Source of the DNA: a virus
Taxonomy: Duplodnaviria > Caudoviricetes
Length of the DNA stretch: 64,000 nucleotides
Direction: 5' to 3' (one strand)
Virus record (IMG/VR): IMGVR_UViG_2859564202_000001
Shown: positions 1 through 58,374 of the stretch, piece by piece
How positions within the stretch are numbered: the first letter of the stretch is position 1
Layout of the letters: the number at the start of each line of letters is the position of its first letter
Notes under the pieces: model-generated
Seen by the model: only the letters and a program-made list of their open reading frames with translations
What the model was told of the DNA's origin: nothing
Databases searched by the model: none
Position numbers and translations under genes: made by a program

Positions 1-1843
1 ACCCACCACCGGGTTGGTCATAAAGTTGCCGACCCAAAGCTTCAGCTGCACGTTCATCGCTCATGCGTGCCAAAGAACGATCTGCCCGCAGTGCACGCAG
101 ACCCACAACCCTTTTACCGTAATCAGCAACCTCAGCCCATTGCTTCTCCCACTGACCGACAGGTGGGGCAAAGGTCAAAAAGTGCTGGTACTTGGATTGG
201 CACATCGCATGATACTGCTCCTCAGTGTCATAAAAACTCCACATTACCTGTGAGGTGGGATCAGCCAAACCTTGAGAGTTAGCGTCCTCCCACGAGCGTT
301 TTTTCACGGCAAAGGCTTCTCGTTGTTCTCGGTGATGATTCAAGCGTGCTGAATACGACCGCAAACGCAGCCCAAATTCCTCAATACTTGGCTCAGGCTC
401 TTCTTTCCCCACCTCTTGTGATCCACTACTACCCTGCTCGTCTAGATCCTTGCTCTTCTTCCGCGCAATACCATCGAGCAAATCCTCATAGTCTTGACGC
501 ATGACTGTCAACATGGCCGTAGAGACATCGCGTTGCTCATCGGAAATCGCGGATAGGACACTGTAGACACCGTTCATGGCCTGCTCAATGATCTTTTCGC
601 GGCCATTATCAATCAAACGCTGGGTGTCCTGCTTGCTTAAACCTTCTTTAACGCGGCGTTTTTGCGCATACTGATAGACCTGCGACAGTGCTGCCGGCAT
701 CGGTGAATCAGTCTCACCAAGTCGCGCCTCCACCAACTCGCGCACTAATCTATTCGGCTTATCCATTTCCTTGGCATTGGTCGATGCACGCCACAGTCGC
801 TTATCCTCTGGCAAACAAGCGACCACAAATTGCGCAGCACTTTCTTGGGTGAGCTGATGAAACGCCCAGCGCTTGACGTAGCTGGTGACATTGCGTTTTT
901 CATACCCCACTGCTGCTGACAAGTGCGCCATATGCTGATGCTGATCAAGCCAGGCGTCAATACCACGCCGCAAAATAGCCTTACCTGGCTTATTGATTTT
1001 GCCTTTTTGCGTACCATCAGCAGCCCGGTGTCCATAACCAGCATCCACCATGGTCAAGTGGGCGTGCACATGCTTCGTATCAACCTGAATCACGCCGACA
1101 TAGCGCAAATCATCATAATGACGCTGGGCTAGACGATCCACACCATGCATGACAGCCATGCGTAGCTTCATTTGGTCAACCTGGCCGCGATAATCACCAG
1201 CACGCTTAATATCGAGATCCTCTGGAATAAGGCCATGCGCGGTCAGGTAATCCTGGGTAAAAGATAGGACCACTTTCATCACGGTATGCCTATTTTCATA
1301 GAGCTCTTGGACGTTATTACTTGCTGCATGAAGATCATCATGTGACAGCGAGACATCGCCATACCCAAAGGCCACTCCCCCATTACCCTGAGCCCTCAGC
1401 ATGAGATCATGAACGCGCTGCCCATCCTGGGTAGTAAATTCCGCGAGTTCCCTCGGGTGCACAGGTTGTGATGGGTTGGTGGTGTCGGAGTCTGTATTCA
1501 CGCCCGCTCGCAATGCTGCTCGCCGGGCGCTGCGTTCTGCACGACGTTGTTTCAAGGTCGCGCGGCGACCTTGCCGGCCACGACGAGAGTTCATTTCAGG
1601 TTGCTGGTCATAGTCTGCGTTACTGTCCGTGGTGAGCTGCTCCACGGCACTATCACGTGCCATATACCGCATGATGAAATCATCTAATTTATTGCGCACA
1701 ATAGGTGCTACTGCTTCTACCGCATCGCTGCGTGCCATATAGCCAGAGATATATTTACCTGGCGATGATCCTCGTGAACCTTTGCCATTTGCCTGCTTAA
1801 TCGTATATTCATTGCGCACGATAATGGCTTGTTTCAAACTCAT
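1..1843 (-). CDS. mobL: MobL-family HUH relaxase (3' end runs off the window)
   Basis: Hand translation from ATG at 1843 (MSLKQAIIVRNEY...) stays open to position 2. Contains GYMAR/RYMAR Tyr motifs, AFGYGDVSLS, VVLSF and YVGVIQVDTKHVHAH (HUH/3H motif). Absent from the ORF track because there is no stop in the window. Confidence 0.85.
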   Translation of the reverse strand, partial: MSLKQAIIVRNEYTIKQANGKGSRGSSPGKYISGYMARSDAVEAVAPIVRNKLDDFIMRYMARDSAVEQLTTDSNADYDQQPEMNSRRGRQGRRATLKQRRAERSARRAALRAGVNTDSDTTNPSQPVHPRELAEFTTQDGQRVHDLMLRAQGNGGVAFGYGDVSLSHDDLHAASNNVQELYENRHTVMKVVLSFTQDYLTAHGLIPEDLDIKRAGDYRGQVDQMKLRMAVMHGVDRLAQRHYDDLRYVGVIQVDTKHVHAHLTMVDAGYGHRAADGTQKGKINKPGKAILRRGIDAWLDQHQHMAHLSAAVGYEKRNVTSYVKRWAFHQLTQESAAQFVVACLPEDKRLWRASTNAKEMDKPNRLVRELVEARLGETDSPMPAALSQVYQYAQKRRVKEGLSKQDTQRLIDNGREKIIEQAMNGVYSVLSAISDEQRDVSTAMLTVMRQDYEDLLDGIARKKSKDLDEQGSSGSQEVGKEEPEPSIEEFGLRLRSYSARLNHHREQREAFAVKKRSWEDANSQGLADPTSQVMWSFYDTEEQYHAMCQSKYQHFLTFAPPVGQWEKQWAEVADYGKRVVGLRALRADRSLARMSDERAAEALGRQLYDQPGGG

Positions 1844-1934
1844 TTTCCCACCGCTCTTTCTTTAACTACAACAACAGCGCCCCCACCAAAAAAACGGTAA
1901 CGACGCTGTTGCTTCTCTTGATGCCTCACCTTGG

Positions 1935-2537
1935 CTAAAGCACGACGTTGCGTGCCTCTTGCTCCACAAACCGGGATTCAACACCACGTCTAAACAGCAC
2001 TCGTTCGGTGTCCGTAATCTTCACCTGTGCATTACCGCGTGCATCGTCAACGCCTGCATCCGCCATCATTATGTGCGCATAGACATAGCTCCGGCTCACC
2101 TCGATAGATGCGACATAACGCATATCCTCAAAAAACGTTCCCTCAAGCCCCAAGAGCCCATTCATCACGGCTAAACGCAATTCCATGAGATCAATCTCTG
2201 GATGGGTGTCCGCATAAATATCCTGACCAAAATAGTTCGGATCAAAGCTCATGATTCCATGCTCACTGAGATAGCTCTTATCAAAAACGACAATCGCTGA
2301 GATAACCGTATGCCCGCACGCAAACAAATCCTGAATATCTTCTGCAGCAGTTGCTACATCGTCATTACTCAGCGACGCATCCCCATAACCGAAGCACGAG
2401 CCTCCGTCATCGGCTCTCAACCCTCGGGCTGCAATATTGCGCTGGATATGCTCATAGGGTGCTAGTTGCGTCTTGGTTGCGCCGCGACCTTTGACCAGGC
2501 GCTGTTCGATCATGACCATAGCGTCGTCAAGTTTCAC
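1935..2537 (-). CDS. MobL relaxase-domain paralog with degenerate metal-binding motif
   Basis: Aligns by eye to the adjacent relaxase (CFGYGDASLS, ELRLAVMNG, MRYVASIEV). HVHAH is replaced by YVYAH. Confidence 0.75.
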   Translation of the reverse strand: MKLDDAMVMIEQRLVKGRGATKTQLAPYEHIQRNIAARGLRADDGGSCFGYGDASLSNDDVATAAEDIQDLFACGHTVISAIVVFDKSYLSEHGIMSFDPNYFGQDIYADTHPEIDLMELRLAVMNGLLGLEGTFFEDMRYVASIEVSRSYVYAHIMMADAGVDDARGNAQVKITDTERVLFRRGVESRFVEQEARNVVL

Positions 2538-2625
2538 TGTATTTCTCCTGTTGCCTTATGTGTGTACAGCTATGAAAAAATCGGCGCCAACAGCACAAAC
2601 ATGCTTAAAGTAGCGCCGATCCTCG

Positions 2626-3879
2626 TTATAGATCTAGCCCGCGTTCTGCAATTTTCTCATCAAACTTGCGCCCCTCCGCAGGTGATGCGTCATAGCCATG
2701 CTTTTGCTCGCGAATATATGCCTCACGCACAGATTCTTGAGTCTGAATCTTCTGTGCAACACGTCGGCTGGCTTCTCGCTGCGCGGTCTTAGCCCGTGAC
2801 TCGCGATCAAAATCAAGCTCTGTCGCAGAAATCTCTGCAGCACTGACACTTGCTGGCGCCTCTACCTCGGCGGTATTGACAACATCATCTGCATCAAGAT
2901 CAATCACGTCATCGAATTCAAGCTCATCAAGATCATGAATAACATCGTTAATCTCTGCAGCACTGACAGTTGGTGCTGCATCAACCTCAGTCTCAATATC
3001 GCTATCCCGCTCAGCCTCCCGCTCCACCACAGGCTCCTGGGCGCGAATCTTCTCGTTGTAGAACTCGGTAACCTCGCGCTCCCACTCACTCATACCAGCG
3101 GTGTCATCAAGATCATGGGCGAGGAATTGCTCAGCATCAAAGCTCTCTTCCGCACCAACAAGCACGGGTTCAGTCTGGAAGGAAATGCCAGCAAGTTTCG
3201 CCATCAACTGTGCTGCGCTCAGCGCTCGCTCCTGCTCAAGGCGCTGTGCATGTGCACTGACACCGGTACGGGTGCGGTTAGCATCAGCGAAAATATCTTT
3301 GCCTTCAATCTCTGCACGAGAAATTGACTCAGAGAAATCCTTGTCCGCCTCGCCCGCTTCACGCTGGCTACGGTAGTCCTCAAACATGCTGGTGAGCTCA
3401 TAGCCAGAGGATTCTTGACTAAAATCCACACCATGAATCTCAGATAAGCCCACAAGCACAATCGGTGGCGCATCCTGCGACTCTGGTGCCACGACAGTGA
3501 CATCGGCATTCATGGGTAGTTCCCACGGCAGGCTCGTCATCATCTCGCGCGGTGGCTGGAAACCTTCTAGATACAGACCTTTATCAATGAGCTCTTTATG
3601 CTGCTGTGGACTGAATTTATAAAATCCACTAAAACGCTGTTGGTTTTCTGAATCAAACGTAATTTTTTGAATGTCGTACGGTAGCTGCGACAATGCAGTC
3701 ACGCTGTCGATGGCACCCTCAACGTGCAATACCGGCTCATGCTGCGTGCCAATAAACTCAACTTCAACAACATCTGGGGTAAACACCGCGTACACCGGTG
3801 CATCGAGCTGTACCTTTTCACCCTGTTCGGCAACCCGCTGCGCTGCGGGTGAATTGGTGTTAAAACCTGCAAGCTTCAT
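2626..3879 (-). CDS. Acidic hypothetical protein in transfer gene cluster
   Basis: 417 aa ORF with RBS-like GAAAGAAA upstream, co-oriented with neighbours. D/E-rich C-terminal half with a repeated VSAAEI motif. Confidence 0.75.
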   Translation of the reverse strand: MKLAGFNTNSPAAQRVAEQGEKVQLDAPVYAVFTPDVVEVEFIGTQHEPVLHVEGAIDSVTALSQLPYDIQKITFDSENQQRFSGFYKFSPQQHKELIDKGLYLEGFQPPREMMTSLPWELPMNADVTVVAPESQDAPPIVLVGLSEIHGVDFSQESSGYELTSMFEDYRSQREAGEADKDFSESISRAEIEGKDIFADANRTRTGVSAHAQRLEQERALSAAQLMAKLAGISFQTEPVLVGAEESFDAEQFLAHDLDDTAGMSEWEREVTEFYNEKIRAQEPVVEREAERDSDIETEVDAAPTVSAAEINDVIHDLDELEFDDVIDLDADDVVNTAEVEAPASVSAAEISATELDFDRESRAKTAQREASRRVAQKIQTQESVREAYIREQKHGYDASPAEGRKFDEKIAERGLDL

Positions 3880-3926
3880 ATCATTTCTCTTTTCTCTACG
3901 TATCGTGTGTCAGGCGTGGTAACTAG

Positions 3927-4625
3927 CTAGTTGCGAGCTGCTGCAACAGCGTCGTTGAGGGCGTCGTGTCGGTTCTTATCGTCTGACTCTTCTGGCTCAG
4001 ACTGTGCCTGTTGCGCCAGAGTCTCTTCAGCCTGTTGAGCCGAGTAAATGGCATCAAGTTTGCGCTGCTTTTTGGCTTCTTTAGCCTGCTGCTTAGTCAG
4101 CTTCTTTTCTGCTCGTGCGCGCTTCGCGTCGTCGCGAGAAATCTTTTCACGACCTGCGTATAACCCCTGTCGCAAAGTCATGGTGAAGCGCCACAATGCA
4201 CCAAAAATAAGATTGAGCACTTTCATGACCACCAGTGCCAGCACAATCATGAGAAACAGCACCGGGATGACCCAGCTAAAGAGGAACCCATCAGTAGTGG
4301 AGATAATCACACCAGCAGAAGCGCCGATGCTGGAAATAACCAGACTTGGCAGTACTGATACTCCCCACGTACCGATGATGGTGACCACAGTGCCAGCTGC
4401 AAGGATCGCTACCGGCCACACGGCGATGGCAAAAACCAGGAAAGCAAACCAACCACCAAGTGAACCAGTGAGCTTCCAGACCTTATCGACCCACGAAGGC
4501 CATCCACCGGTGCGTGCATTAATTGGTTCAACCGTGTTAACCGCTACCGCTTCTGCAATCTCAGCCTGTGCTGCATCATGAGCGTGCTGCAATTGACGCT
4601 GTTTCTTATTTTTCGCTCGTGCCAT
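3927..4625 (-). CDS. Integral membrane protein, probable conjugation-associated
   Basis: 232 aa with several hydrophobic segments and a basic coiled C-terminus. Confidence 0.7.
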   Translation of the reverse strand: MARAKNKKQRQLQHAHDAAQAEIAEAVAVNTVEPINARTGGWPSWVDKVWKLTGSLGGWFAFLVFAIAVWPVAILAAGTVVTIIGTWGVSVLPSLVISSIGASAGVIISTTDGFLFSWVIPVLFLMIVLALVVMKVLNLIFGALWRFTMTLRQGLYAGREKISRDDAKRARAEKKLTKQQAKEAKKQRKLDAIYSAQQAEETLAQQAQSEPEESDDKNRHDALNDAVAAARN

Positions 4626-4694
4626 AGTGCCTATCTCAATTCCTTTTTAATGCAAGTATGTTTGTCACTTTCTTTTTATAATATTAAAAGACAA

Positions 4695-4733
4695 AACCCC
4701 CAATAGCTAGTCACCAACTAACTATTGGGGGTT
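4695..4733 (-). terminator. Probable intrinsic terminator
   Basis: AACCCCCAATAG...CTATTGGGGGTT inverted repeat just after the stop at 4747, with a T-tract on the minus strand. Confidence 0.65.
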
Positions 4734-4746
4734 GCCCCAGAAACTT

Positions 4747-5463
4747 TTAGCCCGAGTATTTCACACCACCGGGGACAGTACGTGCTTCGAGGTTACGAAT
4801 TTTGCCGTCGATCACGTCATAGGCAAGGCGTGAGGTAGAGGTTGTTTCTGCCTCACCACCAGAGCGCTTCGACTTCATCGTCACCGTGGATACATAGCTG
4901 TACTCTGTACCATTAATGCGAGTAACCACGGATTCTAAGCTGCTAAAGCGGTTGGACAGATCTGCATCATAGGCATAGTGCACTTCGCCAGTTGGATCGG
5001 TGCGAGCAATGCCCGCCATTTCACCAGGCATAAACACCGACATAAACTGTGATTCTTCATCCAGGTCATAAACCCGCATCACTTGCTCGCGCACATCAAG
5101 GTAGTCGCGCACGCTGTCCCACGTCAGCGCCATGGACAAAAATTCTCGAACAACAGCATCATCTGCAGCCTTGTGTTCAATATCCATACCACCGGTAGCG
5201 TCACGCACCACCTGCTCAAGTTGGCCCTCAAGCTTACTGTTTAATGCATCACGTTCCTGTTGCAAGGCCATAATCTCACCAGTTTGACGCTTAAGTACAG
5301 CATGTCGATCCGCAGAGGTGCTGGTGGCAACAATAATGACCACCACTGCCAAGATCAACGCAATGATCATGACGATATTGCGAACAAAAAAGCGCTTGAC
5401 CTGATCGAACATCGGCTCGTCCTCAGTTACACCACTCTGGTTATCTACATTTCGTGTCGTCAT
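4747..5463 (-). CDS. Bitopic membrane protein, VirB8/TcpC-like (NTF2-like) candidate
   Basis: N-terminal TM, coiled coil, then 'VVREFLSMALTW' helix and beta-rich C-terminus. Start overlaps the upstream stop. Confidence 0.55.
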   Translation of the reverse strand: MTTRNVDNQSGVTEDEPMFDQVKRFFVRNIVMIIALILAVVVIIVATSTSADRHAVLKRQTGEIMALQQERDALNSKLEGQLEQVVRDATGGMDIEHKAADDAVVREFLSMALTWDSVRDYLDVREQVMRVYDLDEESQFMSVFMPGEMAGIARTDPTGEVHYAYDADLSNRFSSLESVVTRINGTEYSYVSTVTMKSKRSGGEAETTSTSRLAYDVIDGKIRNLEARTVPGGVKYSG

Positions 5464-6473
5464 TATCTGTTCTCCTGTTTGTTCAGCTGAGCGATCTCTA
5501 GTGCCCGCTGCAGCTCATCAACGAAAATAGCCTCGCCCTCAAGCCCCCCGCCTTCACTGCCAGCACGTGCAGCGCTCGCCTCTGCATTTGTGCCGTGGGC
5601 ACCAAATTCACTTGGTGAGGTGGTTGCACCAATACGCTGGTGTCCTTCATAGGTATGCGCCAACGCCAGCGAGCTAAACACGCCGGTGTTGATGTTGTAA
5701 TCGGCTGTCACCCACGCCAACAGCGCACCGTCACGCTCACCTCCGGTCAAGCGGGCCTCCCACATCACCACAACGTGCTCGGTATCTGACATCGACAGTG
5801 TAGGGGTCACAGTCCATCCCCAGGACTCAGCCCCCATCGGCGCCCAGGTGGGTCGGTTGTTATCTCCGACAACAACTTCTTGTGGCTGGTACCAACGACC
5901 CGCCGCAGGAAATTCACCTGTCGTACCAGCAGAGACCGTGAATTTCGGTTTCAGCTCATCAACAATTGTCTTGAACTGCTCGGTCGCGGCATCATCATCA
6001 ACACTGGTAATAATGCCGGCTAACTGATTCTGTAAGTCAGCCACATTCTGTGCACGTGAGGTTGCTGCGTCAAATTGACTAGCAAGAGTCTCTTTTTTGG
6101 GCATTGTCTCTGCAGTGTTTTTTAAGTCGTTGACTTCATTACGCAGAGTGACAATCTGCTCATTGTTTGCACTCACCTTGTCGTCAAAGCCGCCCGAGGT
6201 GGTACTGATCCACAACGTTGTACCAATAAATACGGCGCCAGCCAGTACTGTGACAGCGATACGACCCAAACCAAACAATGGCTTACGCTTACGTGCATCT
6301 TCTTGCGCTTTTGCTAAACGACGTTTACGGATTTGTTCTGCACGACGACGCAGATCATCACCGGTAATCTTCTCGAACGCCTGCTTTTCTTTGTCGCTGC
6401 GCACTTCCCCATTGACGACCCCATCGACAGAGATGGGCTTAAGGTCATCCGACCCGCCATTATTCTCAGCCAT
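5463..6473 (-). CDS. Bitopic membrane protein with coiled coil, probable T4SS subunit
   Basis: 336 aa with a single TM, coiled coil and beta-rich extracytoplasmic domain. Coupled to the next gene. Confidence 0.55.
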   Translation of the reverse strand: MAENNGGSDDLKPISVDGVVNGEVRSDKEKQAFEKITGDDLRRRAEQIRKRRLAKAQEDARKRKPLFGLGRIAVTVLAGAVFIGTTLWISTTSGGFDDKVSANNEQIVTLRNEVNDLKNTAETMPKKETLASQFDAATSRAQNVADLQNQLAGIITSVDDDAATEQFKTIVDELKPKFTVSAGTTGEFPAAGRWYQPQEVVVGDNNRPTWAPMGAESWGWTVTPTLSMSDTEHVVVMWEARLTGGERDGALLAWVTADYNINTGVFSSLALAHTYEGHQRIGATTSPSEFGAHGTNAEASAARAGSEGGGLEGEAIFVDELQRALEIAQLNKQENR

Positions 6474-6603
6474 ATTAAACCCCTTTTAAAGTTACTAAGT
6501 TATTGAAGTTTCTAGAATATAAGTTATTACACAAAAACGGGGTGCACAAGCGCCAACCAGCAGCTCGCACGCCCCGTCACACCAACCCAGCGATGAAAAA
6601 AAC

Positions 6604-8265
6604 TTATCCTGCAGGAGTAGTTCGAGTTGGGTTAGTCATTTCGCCAATTTCTTTACCAGCCGGAATCTGTACACCAGAGAACACTGAGTTTGTCTCAGCC
6701 TGGGTGTTGCGGAACACCTTGAAGTTCACGCCCCATCCATCCAGACTCAAGGTATCCAGACCAGGTGAGCGGTCATTCAACGATGCATGACCAATAGCTG
6801 CATTAGGCTCTGCATTACCAGGGCCCAACATGTCCACAACAACCTCATTGCTGACATACATCGCAACGTGATTCGGTGCACCAAGAAGCACATCGCCAGG
6901 TAACAAATCGTTCTCTGACATGGTGGCAAGATTGCCGATTTCCTCCCAACGGCCCGATCCTGTGCCCACAACGTATTCATACTGTGCTGCTGTTGGACCT
7001 GCTGGGAACGTATCATCCGTGCCCGACCAGCGAATAGCGGTAGCAACGCCACGGTCACAGGATGCGTAATACGGATCACCGGTGAGCACTTCATCATGGA
7101 TATAGCGGTAAATATCAGTACCGTCATTGCCACGAGAATCAGCCAGATAAGGATGTGAAATAGTCACCATTGCTTCTGCAGCGGACGTATTTCCACCTGA
7201 GGTGCGGTCCTCTTCAGGACAATCATTAAGAGCATCCTGCTCATCACGCGCCGTGGATTTTGCTGCTGCACCATCAGCCATAGCGATCACAGACTCACCC
7301 AAGGTTGAGTTCTTTTGCCAACCACCCATCTGCGCGTACCACTTAGATGCTTGCTCTGCACGAATGGGTGCATTACCTGCGACATCTGCCGGGCGCTCCC
7401 ACTCACGCAGGAAGTACTCGGACGCTGCGGTGGGGCTATTGCTACTGGAGTTTTTATTATCAACCATTTCCAGAAAAACCTTGCGATCGCTTTCATTATC
7501 GCCACTAATAGCAAATGCAAGCTGCACGTCGATGTAATGCCAGTCTCGGTTTCTATCGGCGGCAAAATCTAGCAACATCTGTGTGCGCCCTGCTGTCCAC
7601 TGCCCAAGCCCAATACCCATCGGCTGAGGTTCAAAGTTCTTATCCCACGCAGCTCTCTTCCGAGGACCGATGGTATTTGGTTCATCAAAAATACCCTCCA
7701 CCGCAGTCGGGTCGATACCTGATTCTGTCTCAAAGTTGCCCAAGACACCGGCGATATTTTGATCATTCATCCCAAGATACGACAGCGCACCGTACACCAA
7801 CTTCGCGTTCTCAGTCATATCACCTGCGTCAATGGTAAACGGGTTGGCCGTTACTGGCGGCTCACACAACTCGATAATGCCGTCTTTTCGACCTGCCGGC
7901 ACCACAATCATCGACACAATCAACGCAATAGTCGTCACCGACGACAACACCGAGCCTGTACCTGCCAGCATTGCGCCTACACGTGCAGTGATCATGCCAC
8001 CTGTGGCAGCAGAGATACCAGTACCGGCAGACAGGGCAAGCCCCATCATTCGTGTCCACAGGTTTTTAGCCAAATTACCCATAGAGCGAGCACCATTGGC
8101 TGCAAGTGCTGCAGTACCAAAACCTACACGTAGTGCGCCATAACCTAAGCCTTGTGCAGCTGAGCGGGTCTTATCTTTTGCTTCATCAACAAACCCCGAG
8201 CTTCCCGAGTCACCATTATCAGGTGCATCGGGGGCATCATTTGGTTCTATAAAATCATTAGCCAC
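6604..8265 (-). CDS. Peptidoglycan hydrolase: phage-tail-lysozyme domain plus C-terminal CHAP/NlpC-like amidase (VirB1/TcpG analog)
   Basis: IAGVLGNFETESG...GIGLGQWT...WERP lysozyme motifs, SCDRGV...PGDVL...NHVAMYV Cys/His amidase motifs, N-terminal TM. Confidence 0.85.
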   Translation of the reverse strand: MANDFIEPNDAPDAPDNGDSGSSGFVDEAKDKTRSAAQGLGYGALRVGFGTAALAANGARSMGNLAKNLWTRMMGLALSAGTGISAATGGMITARVGAMLAGTGSVLSSVTTIALIVSMIVVPAGRKDGIIELCEPPVTANPFTIDAGDMTENAKLVYGALSYLGMNDQNIAGVLGNFETESGIDPTAVEGIFDEPNTIGPRKRAAWDKNFEPQPMGIGLGQWTAGRTQMLLDFAADRNRDWHYIDVQLAFAISGDNESDRKVFLEMVDNKNSSSNSPTAASEYFLREWERPADVAGNAPIRAEQASKWYAQMGGWQKNSTLGESVIAMADGAAAKSTARDEQDALNDCPEEDRTSGGNTSAAEAMVTISHPYLADSRGNDGTDIYRYIHDEVLTGDPYYASCDRGVATAIRWSGTDDTFPAGPTAAQYEYVVGTGSGRWEEIGNLATMSENDLLPGDVLLGAPNHVAMYVSNEVVVDMLGPGNAEPNAAIGHASLNDRSPGLDTLSLDGWGVNFKVFRNTQAETNSVFSGVQIPAGKEIGEMTNPTRTTPAG

Positions 8266-8294
8266 AATGCACTCTCACAATCAATAAAAAAAAT

Positions 8295-9785
8295 CTAGAA
8301 ACGGAATTCAACAGCATCGGAACCTTGGGCAACCTGAGTATTTTCCACTGCCTGATCAAGCTGTGTTTCCGAGATCAACAGTTGTTGCAGGAGTTGGCGC
8401 TGGTAGCGCTGCTTTTCATTGAAATAGTCCTGGTACGCCTGTGCCAGATTGTTTTTTAAATCAATAAGTGGCTTGGCACCTTCACTGAGCACATGATCTT
8501 CTAGGCGATCACCGTTGCTTAAGACCCACTCCATTTGATTGGCATTCCATGTCGCTTTAGTTTGATACGCGTGATCTGTAATCCAGGTCATAGCATCTTG
8601 ATTCCCTGGGACAACATCCTTGAGGTAGCCATCAAGTGTGGTGCCTAAGCGCCAATCAAAGTCATAACCGCCACCAAAAATATGATCGGTGACCAGGCGG
8701 TATGAGTTGTATTGATAGCCCTCACTCATCAGATTATCCAGCGACGCAGCCATGAACGTCTTGTCCTCCCAACCTGGGACAGATTTCCCGGTGGGGTCCT
8801 CAGCGAGCTGCTTGGTAACATCGACACTTGCCAAACCTTCGATACGATCACCGCGAATTGACTCATGCGGAATAGGCTCAATCAGCGACACGCGCTCACC
8901 CATAATGGTCGCGCTCGTAACGCCGAGCGCCTCCTTGTAATTCTCGATGCGACCAAGCAGTGCGTTCATACGTGAAAGTGACGTATCTAGTGCCTGTCGG
9001 TGACCCACCTCCGTATCTGTCATAGAGGTCTGCCAATACAACGCACGGAGATCAATCTGTTCGTCATTTAATGCCGGCAACGTCGCCAAAGTCTCTGCCG
9101 CTGGATTGAGCATGATGCGCCACTGGTCGTGATCAATAAAGGAATCGTCATAGCCTTGAGCCTTCATATTCTCCGAGGTCAAGTTTGTACTATCGACTTC
9201 GACAAGCTCTTTCTTTGCACGCATTGTGATGTTGAGAACCTGCATATCAAAGCCCTCAGGGGCCTCAAGCATGAGCCCAATTCGACCATCACCAAAGCTA
9301 TAAATGGAACCCACAGTTGCTTGAGAGACATCTGCTGCTTTGGGGCTGGTGCCAAGGTCTTTCACACCGGTGACATAGGCAAAATAATCCTCAGCATTAG
9401 TGGACATATTGGCGGGAACAGCAAACTTAATAACAGCAAAAGCCCGTGTGCCCTCTACATTTTTCCAAAAGCCTGCGAGCTCGCTGACCTGGTTGGTTCG
9501 TGATGATCGAAACTCGGCGTTGTACGTGGCTGTTTGAGAAAAATCAATGTTGCCGGCCTGCACTGCGTAAACAATTGTGCTGCCAAAAAGCAAAGACCCT
9601 GATACCACTGCTGCACCCGAAATAAGTGCTACCCGCTCGATCGTGTAGTGCTGGCCTAAACGAAAGCGGCTGACAATACGATCGACTTTCTTCTGCATAC
9701 CCTCTTTATTTGATGATGACTTTTTCTGCTTTGCTTTTCTCTGCACAGTATTTGTCATAGCTCTACCCCATTTCTTTAATGACAA
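8295..9785 (-). CDS. Membrane-anchored hypothetical protein in transfer cluster
   Basis: ~490 aa with a basic N-terminus, one TM and a C-terminal coiled coil. Confidence 0.7.
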   Translation of the reverse strand: MSLKKWGRAMTNTVQRKAKQKKSSSNKEGMQKKVDRIVSRFRLGQHYTIERVALISGAAVVSGSLLFGSTIVYAVQAGNIDFSQTATYNAEFRSSRTNQVSELAGFWKNVEGTRAFAVIKFAVPANMSTNAEDYFAYVTGVKDLGTSPKAADVSQATVGSIYSFGDGRIGLMLEAPEGFDMQVLNITMRAKKELVEVDSTNLTSENMKAQGYDDSFIDHDQWRIMLNPAAETLATLPALNDEQIDLRALYWQTSMTDTEVGHRQALDTSLSRMNALLGRIENYKEALGVTSATIMGERVSLIEPIPHESIRGDRIEGLASVDVTKQLAEDPTGKSVPGWEDKTFMAASLDNLMSEGYQYNSYRLVTDHIFGGGYDFDWRLGTTLDGYLKDVVPGNQDAMTWITDHAYQTKATWNANQMEWVLSNGDRLEDHVLSEGAKPLIDLKNNLAQAYQDYFNEKQRYQRQLLQQLLISETQLDQAVENTQVAQGSDAVEFRF

Positions 9786-9880
9786 ACTTATTTTAACTAT
9801 TTAAAGACTAATTAAATTTAACACAATTAAATAAACAAACATACTGCATTATTTAACTCAACTAACGCCCCCAAAACATA

Positions 9881-9920
9881 CAAAAAGCACACCCTCAGAC
9901 ATCTGAGAATGTGCTTTTTG
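9881..9920 (-). terminator. Probable intrinsic terminator
   Basis: CAAAAAGCAC...GTGCTTTTTG inverted repeat after the stop at 9935. Confidence 0.6.
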
Positions 9921-9934
9921 TGCGGTGCTGAATC

Positions 9935-10294
9935 TTAGCCACCTGTACCGAAACCGGTAACCGTATCGCCTGCACCAGACGCAAAGTTCAGCGCAAGTGT
10001 GATACCACCAACTAGGAACGCACCACCGACAATGATGAGCAAAATAGTGGTGAACCACTGAATCTGCTGACCACTCTGACCACCGAAGAGCTTGCGCATC
10101 ACGTTGACAAAGCCCCAAATCACAGCAGCACCACCAACAAGTGCCAGCAGCGAACCACCAATAATCATGAGGTAGTCAGTCGAGTTTTCAAGGAACGACT
10201 GTAGATCCCAACTCTCACCCGTGGTGTACTGATCAGCACCATCCCAACCGGTGCCACCCTGTGCAACATAACTAACATTTCCAGGAATTGACAT
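9935..10294 (-). CDS. Small two-TM protein, VirB2/TrbC pilin-like
   Basis: Two Gly-rich hydrophobic helices separated by a short polar loop. Likely start MSIPGN at 10294. Confidence 0.5.
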   Translation of the reverse strand: MSIPGNVSYVAQGGTGWDGADQYTTGESWDLQSFLENSTDYLMIIGGSLLALVGGAAVIWGFVNVMRKLFGGQSGQQIQWFTTILLIIVGGAFLVGGITLALNFASGAGDTVTGFGTGG

Positions 10295-10452
10295 ATTCAC
10301 CCTACTTTCCACACTATTCCCATAAGTAATAAACAACTTTTGTTATCACCTAGTAACTTAGTCTGTTTTTTAGTGGGTTTCAATTCCTAAATACATTTAT
10401 TATTTGGTTAATTAATAAGGATTAATCACCCCAGAAGAGTATATTAAAGGCA

Positions 10453-10493
10453 TAAAGAATCCCCATACACTTTGCGTGTATGGGGATTCTTTA
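10453..10493. terminator. Perfect 18-bp inverted repeat, probable terminator
   Basis: TAAAGAATCCCCATACAC-TTTGC-GTGTATGGGGATTCTTTA. Confidence 0.7.
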
Positions 10494-10686
10494 CGTCATC
10501 AACTAATCAAATACTAATTATCCTGTGCTGGTGGAGTTGATGAAGACGAAGTTTACTGGTTATACAACACAGTATCTAGCTTAAATACTCAGGAAAAACT
10601 CTATGGACGTGCAGTGAAATGCTCCCATTTTGAGCTAAAAATCATATACATAGCAACAGGAAGCATTTCCACGAGAGATCGCAACG

Positions 10687-20500: not shown

Positions 20501-21975
20501 CCTAGATCCATGGAACCTGGATTCTTAAAAGTAGTAAAACTCTCATTTGATTGAGCATTAATTTCCAACGCCGAATTGCGTACCATCCGCATGGACTGCC
20601 CTGTTGGCGCCTGATCCTCCAGACTCCACGCCAGTGTTACTTTGTCAGGAACACGCATACGGGTGTTTTCTGCCCATGATTGGAAATCCACGTAGGTGGA
20701 CAACACAATCTTTGTCGCATTTGATCCAGCACTTGTGGAACTACCGCTGTCGAGGAAGGAATCCAGCGCACCGGTATAAGAGACACCAAGCAGTGGCAGG
20801 CCAACGACACCGTACACGACGCGGATAACAACCTTTTTAAACGCTGATCCCTTGTCCATGCGTCGAAACATCAACGCACCCATCATAAACAGACCAATGG
20901 AGACAGGAATAACGATGAGCCAGCCCACAGTCACTGACCAGTTATAGATCAACCCGAAGAAATCAGTCATTCCTTCAAACGGTGTTCCTTCTGTGGTCTG
21001 CCCACCAGCCATATTCTCAGTGAATGTCTTGTTAGTATTCTGAGATACTGGTCCAACGAGCAGTCTAAATGGGTTTATGGTGCTCAAGATATTCAGCACA
21101 GTGTTAAAAACCAGATCAATGCCTCCGGAGATGATGTACGCGATCATCATCGCGTACCCCATGCCCTTACGCTGAGCAAAATCAGTCTGCGAATCCTCCG
21201 CCTTTGAGCTATCAAAGCCTAAGCCACTCAGTGTCGCGCCAAATAATGCAAAGTGATAAGGCCCTTGAAAGGCATGATCAGCTAGAGAATCATAGGAGTA
21301 CGTTTTCTCGTTGTTGGCAACACCATTACCAAAGAACCAACCAGAGTCCTCGTTGTGTTTCGCGTCAGCATAACCAAGGACATTGCCTCCGTTGGCGGCC
21401 TTACTGAGAATGCCCTCCCACACCTTAAGACCGGCGTCCTCAGAATCGAGGAACTCGTTCGGTCCGCCTTCCTCTACACCGGCAGTAGCTGCCCGACCAT
21501 TGCCATAGAACGATGCCATCGCAGAGGCCATACGGTACATGGAGTAATCAGGGGCTTTATCAAGGTTCTGTTCTTTACGTTGCTCTTCGTTTTTCGCATC
21601 GTAGAAGCACTTCAAGACATCTTCTGCTTCGAGACACTTCTCGATAATGTGCATTTCACCTAAGTTCTCGGTGATGCACTTAAGAAGCATCTCGGTGTCA
21701 CCATCACTGGGACAAATCGCTTCAAAGGCAACCTCGCCCATAGCACCGACAACCTGGGCAATAATAGCGCTGGCGAAAGCATTAGCTTCACGTTCCTTGT
21801 TACCAAACGCACCAAAGCTCAAACCCACTGAGATCAAGAGCGTCATGACAACAGCCATCGTTCGGCGTCGCCACGTCTTGTGTCGGTTGTGTTTAAGCTC
21901 CATGCGCGCAATCTCAGCATCTACGTCCTGCTCACTAAGCTGTACAGGTTGCGGTTCTAAAACTGTCGCAGTCAC
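17509..21975 (-). CDS. Large polytopic membrane protein, VirB6/TcpH-like, with Gly/Ala/Ser-rich C-terminal tail
   Basis: 1488 aa with a signal/TM, two clusters of TM helices, then ~550 aa of low-complexity tail. Confidence 0.65.
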   Translation of the reverse strand: MTATVLEPQPVQLSEQDVDAEIARMELKHNRHKTWRRRTMAVVMTLLISVGLSFGAFGNKEREANAFASAIIAQVVGAMGEVAFEAICPSDGDTEMLLKCITENLGEMHIIEKCLEAEDVLKCFYDAKNEEQRKEQNLDKAPDYSMYRMASAMASFYGNGRAATAGVEEGGPNEFLDSEDAGLKVWEGILSKAANGGNVLGYADAKHNEDSGWFFGNGVANNEKTYSYDSLADHAFQGPYHFALFGATLSGLGFDSSKAEDSQTDFAQRKGMGYAMMIAYIISGGIDLVFNTVLNILSTINPFRLLVGPVSQNTNKTFTENMAGGQTTEGTPFEGMTDFFGLIYNWSVTVGWLIVIPVSIGLFMMGALMFRRMDKGSAFKKVVIRVVYGVVGLPLLGVSYTGALDSFLDSGSSTSAGSNATKIVLSTYVDFQSWAENTRMRVPDKVTLAWSLEDQAPTGQSMRMVRNSALEINAQSNESFTTFKNPGSMDLGYSMDWMEKMADPANSGTDGTSSSSATTIFQGTIALLSRYIDNDSISSGSFETSIRSAMESLTSKEGSGEAVAGGDVMAWVTGYNTASGLNEITAAELADANNPLLEVSDSAGLQGRPIDRNAVSFKSGDATASCNNSVVTGSRAVVGDYRSDCNMSPLTMYNFLNTSFHPADASVFSTSTSASSYTRASHSAVSLIGSGAMNFVYWFSAMSLMGSFIVIGIGYAGAMLFNTIRRTLSLIGAVPFAAMGFIAGVAKVIVYTIAMLVEVIGTIILYQLITRFLMAVPALFEQPLADSLSSNESAELVAGAGMGLVGMALATSGNWAIAGMVITVASSMGVIIFTIIAMKVRGSLVSGVDEAVTSVINRFLDTQVSSAGATSGDGMMRRAAATGLGIGATHMVLNRDGDGGGSDSGSGGSGGGSDSGLGEKAAGLAKVVTTVAGAGLVGKYATDALDNYADGVINGDGDGAFAAGGDATVDGDYVADGDAIASADANADFVDGVVDGAGRASFSNAAYSSDGTTLDGEGASVDAQGNPLHADGTPMSAAEAEMKMAGLSSSGTMMEKSGVKSSGITTAADVMDDQSLASSVTESGLSKIPDTYGADVSGAAGTVGTTGADYSATDSSAGLNMSEAALQSGTPMGALAGGSVSSSDQAMNDAALQIAASQGLAPAGSIAGMEQLSAQATEAPAGKAGKQLGDLSGSALNTQLASMGQQVGDSVNSAYAAGGMGGVDVAGKVTEAAQHLSQVPGQIQNAVTNADAGSSGASFGQMAQGAAGIAGVAGVIGAAGAASSAAQGAGTVQGAMGNAAAGAGMINNAVSGGATGSTGAAHVVNASHGPVAPGQAHYQESGHAQAFVQNNQANTAHTANTRAPSSAQIMGANVAGSLASQAVRGIGQPGQMGANVRDAMGGSGRSGGRGGATQGGRGAQRSGVSAKNGIRAQRGQKPSVTGQAMNAAMRSAAVSGRMANMDGNSVGGTEADPQQGSGVTEKGDKGVK

Positions 21976-44326: not shown

Positions 44327-45910
44327 TTAACTACGGTCTATCGTACACGGAAGATAAGCGTAATTAGTTGCTGACTGACCGAAATACGGCTGACCTTCAT
44401 AAGTCACCTGAAAATATGAAGTACCCCAAAATAATGTATTCTTCTCCCCGCTGCAACCCGCCTCTAAATTGGTTTGCACAACAGAATTCCTATTACCGAA
44501 GAATTGTTGTGCATATGCTGCTTGAGCCCATCGTCCCCAATAGTCGTAGTAAATCCATCCATACCCCACTACATCTGAGACAGTTCCAGGAAGGTCGCAA
44601 TCCATCCTAGCCTTAAACCCAATCTTTGGAACCCTAATCCCGACTCCGTCACTCTTCGTTCTCACATGAATGTTAGCGGATTGCGATTGACATTGAATCG
44701 AATCTTTCTTGGCGTTAAGTGAATTCGCCTCTACACGAGAATTTGACAATCCGTTCTCAAAATACTCTATTGCTTCCTCAAGATTAGCAAAGGGTAAAAA
44801 CTCAATAAAAGCCTCAAGAGGATTGGGGTATAGGTTAGCTGCAAGTTCGCCTTTTTCGAATACCTGATTAGCCATGTTTTCTGTATACTTTTCTGGATCG
44901 CCGATAGGGTAACCGAATTCCCCACTCTCAGCTCCTTCTTCTCTCCAGATGCTGTATATATCCCCTAATATAGGGTGAGCTCCGTGTTGCGGATGCCAGT
45001 AGACAACTCCGTTCTGGAAAACAGAAAATCTGCCCACACCGTCAGCTGTCACAGCCTCATCCGCAATGGGAAAACCAAGGTCACTATCAGGACCACCCAA
45101 TTCAAGCCATTTATCCAAGATCAGCCCATTAATACTGGCCACCTGGAAACCGTCCAATACCGGACTGCGATACACTCGCCCACCTTGGAAAGTTTGCACC
45201 CACCCACTCAACTCACCATCAATCGGATTGGAACCATTCACAGGGACTTCACCACCAGTGGGATAACCCATCCACCCAGACTCCCACCCATTACGCTCCC
45301 ACACCTGCGCACTGTAATTATTAACAGCATGCGCACCAGTTGTCGGATGCCAATAAACAAACCCATTCATAAACCGCTGACGATACCCCTGACCATCAGG
45401 ATTTAACGTTTGGCCTTCACTCGGAAACAACATCCACCCAAACTGGGCACCCTGCTGAATATAGCGCTCTAAAATAGCACCACAAACCTGATGAGGTGAC
45501 GGCCAAAACGTCTGACACGCCGCAGCCGCAGCAAGGCCTCGCGTCTGTGGCTGAGATTGTTGCTGTGCAATAGCTATCTCTGCCTCATCAGCGGCTGCTT
45601 TATCAATAGTTACTGGCAGCTCCACCTTATCTGACCACATCTCACCCGGAATGAGCTCTTCATTAGGTGCGCCAGATTCTTGGGCTTGTCGGATAGCCTC
45701 GTGGATCTCGGCGATTTCTTGCTCAGTGTAGCCACCCACCCCGTCTACCACAGGTGGGGTATTCCCTTCGTGGTGGAACTGTTGAACATACGCATCTTGG
45801 TCTTCAGGTGTGACCACCTGACTAGCTTGCCCCTGTGCCACAGGTGCTATACCACCTGCAACAAGAAGTGCTGCAGCAATGACGCCTGCAGCCTTGGAAA
45901 ACAGTTTCAT
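44327..45910 (-). CDS. psp3: Secreted LGFP-repeat protein
   Basis: Signal peptide, LGFP/MGYP/FGYP repeats, F..G..YW motifs. Symbol is from memory of C. glutamicum annotation and unverified. Confidence 0.85.
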   Translation of the reverse strand: MKLFSKAAGVIAAALLVAGGIAPVAQGQASQVVTPEDQDAYVQQFHHEGNTPPVVDGVGGYTEQEIAEIHEAIRQAQESGAPNEELIPGEMWSDKVELPVTIDKAAADEAEIAIAQQQSQPQTRGLAAAAACQTFWPSPHQVCGAILERYIQQGAQFGWMLFPSEGQTLNPDGQGYRQRFMNGFVYWHPTTGAHAVNNYSAQVWERNGWESGWMGYPTGGEVPVNGSNPIDGELSGWVQTFQGGRVYRSPVLDGFQVASINGLILDKWLELGGPDSDLGFPIADEAVTADGVGRFSVFQNGVVYWHPQHGAHPILGDIYSIWREEGAESGEFGYPIGDPEKYTENMANQVFEKGELAANLYPNPLEAFIEFLPFANLEEAIEYFENGLSNSRVEANSLNAKKDSIQCQSQSANIHVRTKSDGVGIRVPKIGFKARMDCDLPGTVSDVVGYGWIYYDYWGRWAQAAYAQQFFGNRNSVVQTNLEAGCSGEKNTLFWGTSYFQVTYEGQPYFGQSATNYAYLPCTIDRS

Positions 45911-49802: not shown

Positions 49803-52082
49803 TTAATCGCGTGGTGCGAGCTGGAAGCCGACGAACGAATTACCGTTGTACTCGCCGCGCTGCAGCGATCCCCGAGCGGTGTACGGCTTCTTGGCCTTCG
49901 ACATGGCATCAAAAGCAATCTCGCGGCCCTCAAGCAGATCGGCGATCTCCTTGTCGGTGAACTTGTGACCACCCCATACGCGCTTGAAGCGAATCTTTTC
50001 ACCCTCAACCTTCCACACACCCACCGCGTACACAGCTGGGTCTGCAGAGGCAATGCGATCAACCTGCCCCTTAAACCCAAAGAACTTAATGGTCTTGCCG
50101 TCTTTGTTAAAGCTTTGATGCGCCAGCTTGCCGGTGACTGTCGTGATCTGTCCACCAATCATGGCATCGGTAATGGTGAGCTCCTCACCGCGCAGCAACG
50201 CCTCGCATTCTGCATCGCTAAATTCATGCCCGCAGTAGACCTTCTTAAAGCTCACCTGCTCACCGTTCCAGGTGCCGGAGTGCTTGACAGAAGGGGTAAA
50301 AGTAGTAGTCATGAGTTTCTTTCCTAGTTCTTGGGGGATGTTTTTTGCGTTACGGGTCATGGTCGCAATATCTTCTTCGACCCACTGTTTAACTGGTTCC
50401 AGTGCCTGCTCTGCAGTCTTTTCACCAGCAGCAACCGCTGCCATATCGGCATAAACGCGCTCGGTAAGTTTGAGGTCGCCAATGTGGGTGCCAGGAAGCA
50501 GCAGATAATTCAGTTGCCCTGCGTCAGTCATAGTGACTTTGCCACGCGTTTCTTTGAGCAATGCTGACTTGCCGGCTGTGACCTCGGCATAGGTGCTCGT
50601 TCGTGTCGCACCGGTACCGACATCATGCTTATCGAGCTGTTTCATCAACCACGTCATTGACGGATGCGGTGGTCGCTGCGGAAAACCCTCAAACACTTCT
50701 GGCTCAGCACGAGTACCAATCCCCTGCTGTGCTGCATCACTGCCGGCAGCATCATCATCAGCCTCAGCGTCTACGTCGAAAATACCTTTCCAACCCAAGG
50801 ACTTTGGCACATTTGCTGTACCGAGAAACGCTGGGTAATCCACGACGCGGCCTTTTTGGTGCTCATAGAGGTAATCCTCTGCCAGCATCGTGAGATAGCT
50901 CTTAGCGAGCACTTCATAAATGCGCTGTCCGAGCACACCGTAGGTGGTTTTCACCGCTGCAATACTGGTCGGCACATTCAAACCCGGACGGTTGGCGCCG
51001 TGTGCACCCTTGGGCTTAACATGCGTGGACCGTGGCTGTCGGTGCGTAAGGTCAGCCGGGTTCACACCAACCAGGCCGGCGATCTTATCGACCAACGGCG
51101 CTAGTTCCTTAAACTGCTCAGGGGTAATCGTCTTATCCTCGGTACGCGGATAAGACACGACCTGCGCCTCGTACATCTGCTGATAAGTCTTAAGCACGTT
51201 CTTTGCGCTAAAGCCCTCTTTAGACAGCAGGGCCGACAGGCTCGCCAGGTCAAGTAGACGTGGTGGCGCGGTCTTTTTCATGCTCTTCTCATAGCATTCG
51301 ACCGCACTAGCCTTATAAAGCTGTGGTACCTCGTCGCAAGTCTTATAACGCGGTTCCTCGGGGTTGACGTAACTTACACCGTGATCATCAATGAAGCGGT
51401 TTTGATAAAAAGGAATCTTTTTATAATCGTTGTACGCATCTAAGCCCTGCCCCACAATCGCAACCATGGCAGATTTCAGGCGACCATTGCGCAACACTGC
51501 ACGCCGACCAGTGGTCTCTAGCACTTTGGTGGCACCGCGAGTCCACTGCATCGACAGCAAATCAAAGCGTGATCGGAATTCCGCCTTAAGATAATTGGGC
51601 TCGTCATGCATGGAGGTCACATCGCGGCGGTTGATAAACGCCTGCTGAATCGAGGCCGGCGCCTCATCAACAAATTCCATACGCTGAATCTTCTTGGTGT
51701 CTAACCCCAGCTCAGCGATAATCTCCCACGCCAACAGATCACCTTCGCCCGTGGGATCAATATCTGATCCGATCACAATGGTGGTGCAGCTGCTCAAGGT
51801 TTTCTTAATGCGTGCAATCGTGTTAGCTGCACCGTGCTTTTGCTCGCGTGACCACAAAAACTGCGTCTCATCCCACGGCAGCTTAGCCAGATCCCAGTAG
51901 CCGCCGATCTTATCGGCATAGCTTGGTGGCACCATCTCTTCTGGCTCGACAAATTCATAAAGGTGCCCGCTGGCTGCAGCAATAACGTACTTCTCGCCGT
52001 TATAAGTGCCAGAGGGTCCACCGAGGGCTTTCGCAAAGTTTTTCGCAGCCGAAGCTTTCTCCGTCAAAATTCCAATTGTCAA
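49803..52082 (-). CDS. Type IA DNA topoisomerase (TopB/TraE-like) with C-terminal repeats
   Basis: TEK, GHL, DIDPTGEG, SYPRTE (catalytic Tyr), AHGANRP, GTGATR. Two C-terminal G.W...FK....GH.F.D.E...LL.G repeats. Confidence 0.93.
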   Translation of the reverse strand: MTIGILTEKASAAKNFAKALGGPSGTYNGEKYVIAAASGHLYEFVEPEEMVPPSYADKIGGYWDLAKLPWDETQFLWSREQKHGAANTIARIKKTLSSCTTIVIGSDIDPTGEGDLLAWEIIAELGLDTKKIQRMEFVDEAPASIQQAFINRRDVTSMHDEPNYLKAEFRSRFDLLSMQWTRGATKVLETTGRRAVLRNGRLKSAMVAIVGQGLDAYNDYKKIPFYQNRFIDDHGVSYVNPEEPRYKTCDEVPQLYKASAVECYEKSMKKTAPPRLLDLASLSALLSKEGFSAKNVLKTYQQMYEAQVVSYPRTEDKTITPEQFKELAPLVDKIAGLVGVNPADLTHRQPRSTHVKPKGAHGANRPGLNVPTSIAAVKTTYGVLGQRIYEVLAKSYLTMLAEDYLYEHQKGRVVDYPAFLGTANVPKSLGWKGIFDVDAEADDDAAGSDAAQQGIGTRAEPEVFEGFPQRPPHPSMTWLMKQLDKHDVGTGATRTSTYAEVTAGKSALLKETRGKVTMTDAGQLNYLLLPGTHIGDLKLTERVYADMAAVAAGEKTAEQALEPVKQWVEEDIATMTRNAKNIPQELGKKLMTTTFTPSVKHSGTWNGEQVSFKKVYCGHEFSDAECEALLRGEELTITDAMIGGQITTVTGKLAHQSFNKDGKTIKFFGFKGQVDRIASADPAVYAVGVWKVEGEKIRFKRVWGGHKFTDKEIADLLEGREIAFDAMSKAKKPYTARGSLQRGEYNGNSFVGFQLAPRD

Positions 52083-57627: not shown

Positions 57628-58374
57628 CTAATCAATTTTGAAAACGCGCACCATTAGGTAATCTCTCGATAAATAGTGTTTGGCCAGTAACAGACTCAAA
57701 AGCTTCTGCAAACTTGTTAAATCGTCAAAACAGCCGTTGACAAAGCTCTCCCACCACCGCAACTCTGCATCATGACTCCAATAAAATTCCTCAACCGGCA
57801 TTTGATAGGCATAACGTTCAGCTGTAGAAGGCCCCAGCATCATCCAACTCGTCGCTAATGCTGACTCCCACAATTCAAGATCTGTCTTTTCGAAAACCGA
57901 GCTAATAGGACTAGGCGAACCAGGACTCAGTGCACAATATCCCACAAGCTCACAACGTCCAGCCGACTGCGCCCACTCCTGATCAGGATCAACAATCAGC
58001 GCACGCCCAACCTTGACATCAATTCCGGTGTGCTGCACAAAGAACTCTAACCATTCCTGTAACTCAGATACAGTGAGCACATCCGGTAGATCAGCTACTA
58101 AGGATCTTATATTGGACGAGAAAAGTGACCACTTTTCAGCAACGATCGCTTGAAAAAGACACTGCCGAACAGCTCCGGCTATGCGCTGATTAGTAAATAC
58201 ATTACCTGGGAATGGTAGTGAACTACCGTCCCTTTTTGTCACTCTAGAAAATGCATTCCACTTTCCCATGATGTTGATGAGTAGAAAATCTAGACTTAGC
58301 GATGGCCCGATAAAGCGAAATCCGGAAGTTTTATAGCCTCTAGTGTAGATGCACAGTTGATGGGGTTCTGTCAT
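57628..58374 (-). CDS. Hypothetical protein translationally coupled to LGFP gene (immunity candidate)
   Basis: ATGA overlap with the upstream stop. Confidence 0.65.
   Translation of the reverse strand: MTEPHQLCIYTRGYKTSGFRFIGPSLSLDFLLINIMGKWNAFSRVTKRDGSSLPFPGNVFTNQRIAGAVRQCLFQAIVAEKWSLFSSNIRSLVADLPDVLTVSELQEWLEFFVQHTGIDVKVGRALIVDPDQEWAQSAGRCELVGYCALSPGSPSPISSVFEKTDLELWESALATSWMMLGPSTAERYAYQMPVEEFYWSHDAELRWWESFVNGCFDDLTSLQKLLSLLLAKHYLSRDYLMVRVFKID

Follow-up and report, generated by a model that had tools for sequence, protein, structure and literature searches.

A lineage-specific and probably non-catalytic copy of the MobL nicking domain encoded directly upstream of a relaxase gene

Every conjugative DNA transfer begins with a relaxase, and the helpers known for this enzyme are small DNA-binding proteins that are unrelated to it. 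What, then, could be the role of a small gene that lies directly upstream of a relaxase gene and appears to encode a second, catalytically dead version of the relaxase's own nicking domain? This arrangement is found at one end of a 64,000-nucleotide stretch of DNA (the window), filed in IMG/VR as a virus of the class Caudoviricetes (IMGVR_UViG_2859564202_000001), which we take to be, probably, the CGP3 region of Corynebacterium glutamicum ATCC 13032. The host, apparently of the C. glutamicum type-strain lineage, is a laboratory organism that is easy to work with and not pathogenic. The original prediction for the 200-aa ORF was a maintained pseudo-enzyme serving as a relaxosome accessory factor, an oriT-binding competitor or a transfer regulator. 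Our own explanation, to which we give slightly better than even chances as a whole, is that of a lineage-specific dead duplicate of the relaxase domain, kept by selection, that would act as a non-catalytic relaxosome subunit or regulator. The features discussed below are collected in Table 1.

Table 1. Positions of the small gene, its neighbours and further features in the window
Feature	Position	Strand	Remarks
MobL-family relaxase gene	2..1843	(-)	first 614 codons, the rest cut by the window edge; both YMAR motifs and DTKHVHAH intact
42-nt hairpin in the 91-nt spacer between small gene and relaxase gene	1871..1912	(-)	placed as the conserved hairpin in the ~94-nt spacer of relatives
Putative pseudo-relaxase gene	1935..2537, stop codon included	(-)	200 aa, stand-alone compact copy of the MobL nicking domain
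AGGAG ribosome-binding site	2545..2549	(-)	7 nt before the GTG start; same in G568
Hairpin in the 88-nt spacer upstream of the small gene	2580..2620	(-)	ATCGGCGC...GCGCCGAT, then T6
Conserved acidic 417-aa gene	2626..3879	(-)	homolog ~94 nt upstream of the relaxase gene in 63/66 related loci
GIY-YIG, LGFP-repeat (two), topoisomerase IA-like and UvrD-like genes	10687-12198, 44327-45910, 49803-52082, 53460-55547, 58371-60260		

The similarity between the two neighbouring ORFs is real and, by sequence comparison, far beyond chance. BLASTP aligns them over 152 aa at 38% identity (E 6e-31), and both pass the Pfam cut-off of 28.5 bits for MobL (PF18555): the small ORF with 41.8 bits, over profile positions 63-168 of 383 only, and the relaxase with 184 bits over positions 2-359. 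The prediction that the 200-aa ORF mirrors the relaxase core is thus confirmed, and MobL is the sole Pfam match of the small protein. With the small ORF as query, an exhaustive HMMER search of 1.84 billion cluster representatives returned 171 matches, about 170 of them MobL relaxase clusters (best E 2.5e-23), with 77 relaxase clusters between 2.5e-23 and 1e-10; its own cluster aside, nearly all matches are relaxases of 600-1000 aa that share at most 43% identity with it. Word-based protein searches found near-identical copies and one relaxase, nothing else, and scanning the small ORF against genome contigs and metagenome contigs gave no match. The complete relaxase has 922 aa in the near-identical genome G001 (L001:112-2880). 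Its start codon lies 91 nt from the small gene, which itself begins with GTG at 2537; the two starts are 694 nt apart, which is not a multiple of 3, so the frames differ and a read-through fusion with the relaxase is ruled out.

How much of the nicking domain is left in the small protein? Alignments with about 70 relaxases, and with 39 N-domains translated from the loci that we fetched, give a detailed picture. The small protein retains the N-terminal strand (MKLDDAMVMIEQRLVK versus MSLKQAIIVRNEYTIK in the relaxase) and the GxRG loop, continues with a degenerate remnant of the first Tyr motif (PYEHIQRNIAAR versus PGKYISGYMAR), and then skips about 100 relaxase residues that comprise two long helices and, with them, the second YMAR motif. 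The match to the relaxase picks up again at GGxxFGYG and runs to about relaxase residue 318, where the small protein ends, so that the C-terminal region typical of the MobL family, whose members have 700-930 aa, is absent. In the relaxase, the YMAR motifs comprise Y35/R38 and Y60/R63, and both are invariant in the 39 relatives. The small protein carries Y35->N, R38->A and Y31->H in the first motif, and the second is deleted. That the N-terminal YMAR motifs are missing, as initially noted, is therefore correct for both motifs, but they were not lost by simple truncation, since the strand and the degenerate remnant are still in place.

The histidine motif tells a similar story. VDTKHVHAH of the relaxase aligns with VSRSYVYAH, which corresponds to D255->S, T256->R, H258->Y and H260->Y, with H262 kept; the replacement of DTKHVHAH by SRSYVYAH had been read off the two ORFs at the outset, and the alignment bears it out, with the altered motif invariant in 13 variants. 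Eight positions that are invariant in the 39 relaxases (Y35, R38, Y60, R63, D255, T256, H258 and H260) are all lost in the small protein, which keeps 41 of the 82 columns that are at least 95% conserved in the relaxase N-domains. The losses among these columns are Y31, Y35, M36, R38, the whole 41-66 segment, D255, T256, H258 and H260, and the retained ones include H262 and many core glycines and hydrophobic residues. For RelLS20, residues 1-232 suffice for nicking, the Tyr mutant Y26F has lost nicking, and the metal site is assigned to the His triad (PMC5313138); the small protein spans roughly the same region as this fragment. A weak match to the profile (E 0.003) is seen in 9qq7, a solved 234-aa ‘Relaxase’ whose NYINRDEAV aligns to the second YMAR motif; either tyrosine could therefore be catalytic in the actinobacterial enzymes, and the small protein has neither. 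Going by its residues, it almost certainly cannot carry out canonical nicking.

The predicted fold is in line with this origin. An AlphaFold2 model of the small protein (pLDDT 76, pTM 0.80) shares all secondary-structure elements with the model of the relaxase N-domain except relaxase residues 50-152, and contains a five-stranded sheet with flanking helices that is predicted to superpose on solved relaxase domains. The five best structural matches found by VIA-align are all relaxase domains (MobA, TrwC, TraI, NES and MobM; PDB entries 2ns6, 1omh, 1p4d, 4ht4 and 4lvi), each spanning 142-159 residues at Z 7.9-8.1; a Foldseek search of the PDB with the model returned nothing significant. The model is thus compatible with a HUH relaxase fold, a match that is partly built in by the relaxase-dominated alignment.

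The loss of catalytic residues would also be expected of a functionless remnant, left by duplication or replacement of a relaxase gene, whose frame has stayed open by chance, a reading that could further draw on the very long branch of the small gene, on its confinement to one narrow lineage and on the plain NCBI names of its products. The pattern of substitution speaks strongly against it. Between G001 and G568, a second Corynebacterium genome, the small gene has 41 synonymous and 18 non-synonymous differences, a deficit of the latter at P 2e-14 against neutrality; dN/dS is 0.102 at dS 0.39 (Nei-Gojobori), an estimate of selection that rests mainly on this one DNA pair plus the protein variants. 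For the same pair, dN/dS is 0.061 for the whole relaxase, 0.038 for its core (residues 149-320) and 0.04-0.11 for neighbouring genes. Across seven element variants, mean pairwise identity is 95.8% for the small protein, 94.7% for the relaxase and 96.9% for the relaxase N-domain. Of 202 columns, 169 are invariant in the small-protein variants, SRSYVYAH included, which is kept in 13/13 full-length variants, and all indels in the gene are in frame. When the relaxase core was left to decay neutrally to 38% identity by substitution only, the frame was still open in 0.15% of 2000 runs, with a mean of 6.5 stops. Together with the conserved ribosome-binding site and a pace as slow as that of the relaxase, these numbers leave the remnant reading largely refuted and very improbable. 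We conclude that the small gene is protein-coding and under purifying selection, evolving about as slowly as the relaxase as far as these sequences tell, and its ribosome-binding site and selection signal suggest that it is expressed. It therefore qualifies as a pseudoenzyme, an enzyme homolog without catalytic residues under purifying selection.

The gene is also not confined to a single assembly. The 90% cluster of the small protein has 20 members, and the window's own sequence was found on 257 contigs. Members include BAU96146.1 / WP_096456440.1 from Corynebacterium suranareeae, named ‘hypothetical protein’ and ‘relaxase MobL’, and about ten Logan variants; for five of these, the longest contigs equal those of relaxase variants in size, which suggests that small-protein and relaxase variants share contigs. 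Among 321 genomes searched across the genus, G001 and G568 carry the pair. With the pair intact in G568 and in at least five Logan assemblies, and dN/dS in homologs far from 1, the view of a maintained pseudo-enzyme rather than a decaying duplicate has stood up well.

But how widespread is the pair among MobL elements? We fetched 78 actinobacterial MobL loci and compared their gene order. Upstream of the relaxase, the order of transfer genes is conserved, with homologs of the 496-, 553-, 336-, 238- and 417-aa genes. The 417-aa homolog and the relaxase gene are direct neighbours in 63 of 66 loci, with 75-114 nt (median 94) from the end of the former to the relaxase start, which indicates that the small gene has been inserted between genes that elsewhere adjoin. 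None of the 78 actinobacterial loci contains a further MobL-like sequence within 8 kb, and a second MobL copy is likewise absent from 26 IMG/VR loci and 12 plasmid records; these 116 loci are all of the short-linker class or distant, while both pair-bearing relaxases belong to the long-linker class. The plasmid search gave one weak match with blastn and, with tblastn, 12 records with one matching place each. MobL is itself rare: G001 was the sole match in a family-level sample of 301 genomes and the sole PF18555 match in a class-level sample of 401 genomes. The small gene is thus specific to one lineage, and the pair is not general among MobL elements.

The site itself seems to be an insertion hotspot. 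Three relatives (L064, L076 and L069) have a large gap upstream of the relaxase gene, none of which contains a MobL copy; the L069 gap holds unrelated genes, and two Arthrobacter loci carry HNH-endonuclease-like ORFs of 249-267 aa (HLCRVH.CVNPGHLEP) in the same spacer (L064:7255-8004 and L076:7201-8004).

Tree position says less about where the small gene came from. Its branch is very long (changes per site: 5.0 for the end branch, with the median at 0.88, and 2.45 for the stem in a second tree), and a grouping with its own relaxase survives the AU test (p 0.44). Today the protein changes about as slowly as the relaxase does, so its long branch must reflect either a burst of change early on or great age, and the burst is the more parsimonious of the two, as the relatives are without the gene. 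The hairpin-bearing spacers of about 90 nt on both sides (88 and 91 nt) fit a tandem duplication of a unit of ‘spacer plus 5' relaxase domain’. With so long a stem (2.45-5 changes per site), its place in the tree is only loosely fixed, and the gene may instead have been captured from another element. Most simply, we picture a tandem duplication of the 5' part of the neighbouring MobL gene, encoding the nicking domain, after which the copy would have lost the helical insert with the second Tyr motif, both tyrosines, two of three metal-binding histidines and many basic residues. Purifying selection would then have retained a separately translated protein that keeps the HUH relaxase fold.

Has such a duplication happened only once? 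The one other short match in the HMMER list, P0126 (192 aa), led to a metagenome locus, L087, a contig of 164.5 kb with 60% GC. Here, the same transfer-gene homologs are followed by a 190-aa MobL-like ORF (8001-8573) and, after 26 nt, by a 928-aa relaxase gene (8600-11386). The L087 protein shares 54% identity with its own relaxase and 27% with the small protein of the window, and groups with its own relaxase at 100/99 support; for L087 and P0126 together, identity to their relaxase is 54-60%. That all short copies go back to one ancient origin is rejected by the AU test (p 0.0025, for a grouping chosen after the first tree had been seen). In both, the first motif is degenerate (Y35->W, R38->G or A), both the second motif and the insert are missing, and the chain stops after the same helix; Y31 and D255 are kept. 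The His triad has eroded differently, to DTDHVRCY in L087 and DPAHVHCD in P0126, and both have lost K/R positions in common with the window's small protein, at 38, 202, 219, 226, 237, 286 and 302. Two independent duplications that converge on the same product argue for a selectable function, and the recurrence of the arrangement in a second lineage is a further point against a functionless remnant.

The second family also bears on whether the small protein could have become a different enzyme. Pseudoenzymes with migrated catalytic residues are known in general (PMC10211241), and the invariance of Tyr28, Tyr151, Tyr153 and His155 in all variants would allow for a still active nuclease or transesterase that uses, for example, Tyr28 or a Tyr-x-Tyr-x-His arrangement in place of the His triad. 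Set against this are the eight family-invariant active-site positions that are gone, and the loss of different histidines in the other short family (HVRCY in L087, HVHCD in P0126), as though the site were unconstrained. The chance that activity survived in this way appears very slim to us.

The small protein also differs from relaxase domains in its charge. Over the columns shared with relaxases, it has a net charge of -14 and a pI of 4.6 (-17 and 4.55 in G568). The core of the neighbouring relaxase has +5 and 9.3, and 40 relaxase cores have a median net charge of +3 (range -3 to +12) and a median pI of 8.87. At 19 alignable positions, relaxases have Lys or Arg in at least 80% of sequences, and 12 of these are replaced in the small protein. 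This acidic shift of about 19 units, together with the loss of conserved basic residues, weakens the oriT-competitor part of the original prediction and points to action via protein contacts, as a partner, inhibitor or mimic; a local patch that binds DNA may remain on the acidic protein.

HUH relaxase domains bind a hairpin together with the adjacent single strand. The small protein could accordingly be a non-cleaving oriT binder that recognises one of the spacer hairpins or the relaxase's own site and acts as a competitor, as a repressor of the relaxase promoter or as a placeholder on the DNA, which corresponds to the competitor and regulator options of the original prediction. This reading takes its strength from the surroundings of the gene, as both relaxase-domain genes are preceded by a hairpin spacer of about 90 nt placed as in relatives, and the nick of pLS20 adjoins an inverted repeat within a GC-rich stretch, a parallel for the window hairpins that is suggestive only. 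Moreover, G001 and G568 share 95% identity in the spacer that precedes the small gene, despite a dS of 0.27-0.39 in neighbouring genes, so that this spacer seems to hold a constrained cis element, which could be a terminator (hairpin then T6), a promoter or an oriT-like site. The hairpin in this spacer may be either a terminator or a duplicate of the one that relatives keep ahead of their relaxase genes, and a plain terminator would tell against oriT binding. Beyond the acidic charge and the 12 replaced Lys/Arg positions, the L087 pair also stands against oriT binding, with spacers of 26-30 nt and no duplicated hairpin. We consider an oriT binder unlikely on balance. The hairpin between small gene and relaxase gene is in its own right a candidate oriT inverted repeat or attenuator. 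Among the relatives, a GC-rich hairpin of the GGCCCCGG...CCGGGGCC type lies in the spacer between the 417-aa homolog and the relaxase gene in 63 of 66 actinobacterial loci (for example L005:7902-8000); its stem sequences (L005-L082) differ between genera in spacers of 75-114 nt (median 94), and it is likewise a candidate oriT inverted repeat or attenuator for this uncharacterised element group.

Returning to a dead duplicate kept by selection, its most likely job, as we infer it, would be that of a non-catalytic relaxosome subunit or regulator that tunes the relaxase; its acidic surface would mainly make protein contacts with the relaxase or another transfer protein instead of binding oriT in the manner of a relaxase. 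Position agrees, as a place upstream of the relaxase gene in the transfer operon is where a factor that modulates nicking would be expected. The strong reversal of charge and the early burst of change suggest a new function, and with the element placed in a large island that is low in GC, rich in introns and partly phage-like, partly conjugative in character, that function could conceivably lie beyond the element's own transfer, such as blocking the relaxase of an incoming relative (exclusion or immunity) or processing host or phage DNA. Such co-option seems improbable, since the gene lies directly upstream of the relaxase gene within a conserved transfer order in two independent lineages, which speaks for a relaxase-tied role. 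A bolder version of the relaxosome-regulator reading is that actinobacterial MobL elements have at least twice made a relaxase-domain duplicate into a dead, acidic ‘anti-relaxase’ or partner that controls nicking or strand transfer by protein mimicry and not by binding DNA, which would make it a new class of relaxosome component; this we put forward tentatively, as a possibility that may well prove wrong.

Several observations on the relaxase and the element deserve a place of their own. Actinobacterial MobL relaxases carry two tandem YMAR(D/E)xAVE motifs (Y35 and Y60; window 1664-1741), which all 39 sequences share without change. In the solved relaxase 9qq7 there appears to be a single Tyr motif, the one to which HMMER aligns the second YMAR motif, and the actinobacterial enzymes might use two tyrosines, as MOBF relaxases do. 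The basic, Arg-rich linker that joins the second Tyr motif of the relaxase to its core (residues 71-148; window 1400-1633) has a dN/dS of 0.38 versus 0.01-0.07 elsewhere in the protein, and the long-linker class includes both relaxases with a short upstream copy (window and L087). Synonymous divergence between L086 and L085 (G001, G568; window about 1-10000) is uneven, with 0.01 for the 133-aa gene, 0.15 for the 496- and 553-aa genes and 0.75-1.0 for the relaxase gene, which indicates that related elements have recombined into mosaics. Further genes of the island specify a GIY-YIG domain protein, two LGFP-repeat proteins (Corynebacteriales, cell-wall anchored), a topoisomerase IA-like protein and a UvrD-like helicase, and the largest ORF of the island (1488 aa, 17509-21975) has no Pfam match.

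If our explanation is true, a selected dead copy of a relaxase domain that has arisen twice would represent a different way of controlling transfer. Full-text literature searches returned no report of a catalytically dead, truncated or pseudo-relaxase-domain paralog, and nothing relevant on a relaxase or conjugation in CGP3 or on a RelLS20 structure. There is also a practical side for annotation: the NCBI name of the small protein is ‘relaxase MobL’, and MOB typing that relies on Pfam would register it as one more relaxase.

Finally, we would like to compare the small protein with systems that are already known. It resembles RelLS20 of the Bacillus subtilis plasmid pLS20, the MobL (MOBL) prototype, in sequence homology, in its predicted HUH fold and in spanning the fragment that nicks. 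Unlike RelLS20 and other MobL relaxases, it has no catalytic Tyr motif, one of three histidines and no C-terminal part of about 600 aa, and it is a separate 200-aa gene product, acidic instead of basic, on a branch at least six times longer. With relaxosome accessory proteins (Aux1/Aux2 of pLS20, TraY, TrwA, MobC, PcfF) it shares small size and a gene directly upstream of the relaxase gene. Those proteins are not related to the relaxase: they are of the ribbon-helix-helix type or belong to other groups of small DNA binders (PMC5675868, PMC8829557). The predicted fold of the small protein, in contrast to the Aux1/Aux2, TraY and TrwA type, is that of the relaxase domain itself, in an acidic copy of the catalytic domain. 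A second partial protein that coexists with the nicking enzyme is also a feature of TraI* of F-like plasmids and A* of phiX174. Both are shortened isoforms made from internal starts and identical to part of their parent, whereas the small protein comes from a separate, highly diverged gene with its own ribosome-binding site and altered active-site residues. Its closest counterparts are P0126 and the L087 ORF (8001-8573), which likewise encode 190-192 aa upstream of a 928-aa MobL relaxase, lack the insert and the second Tyr motif and have fewer basic residues; these differ from it in their independent origin, lesser divergence, retention of Y31 and D255, and spacers of 26-30 nt.
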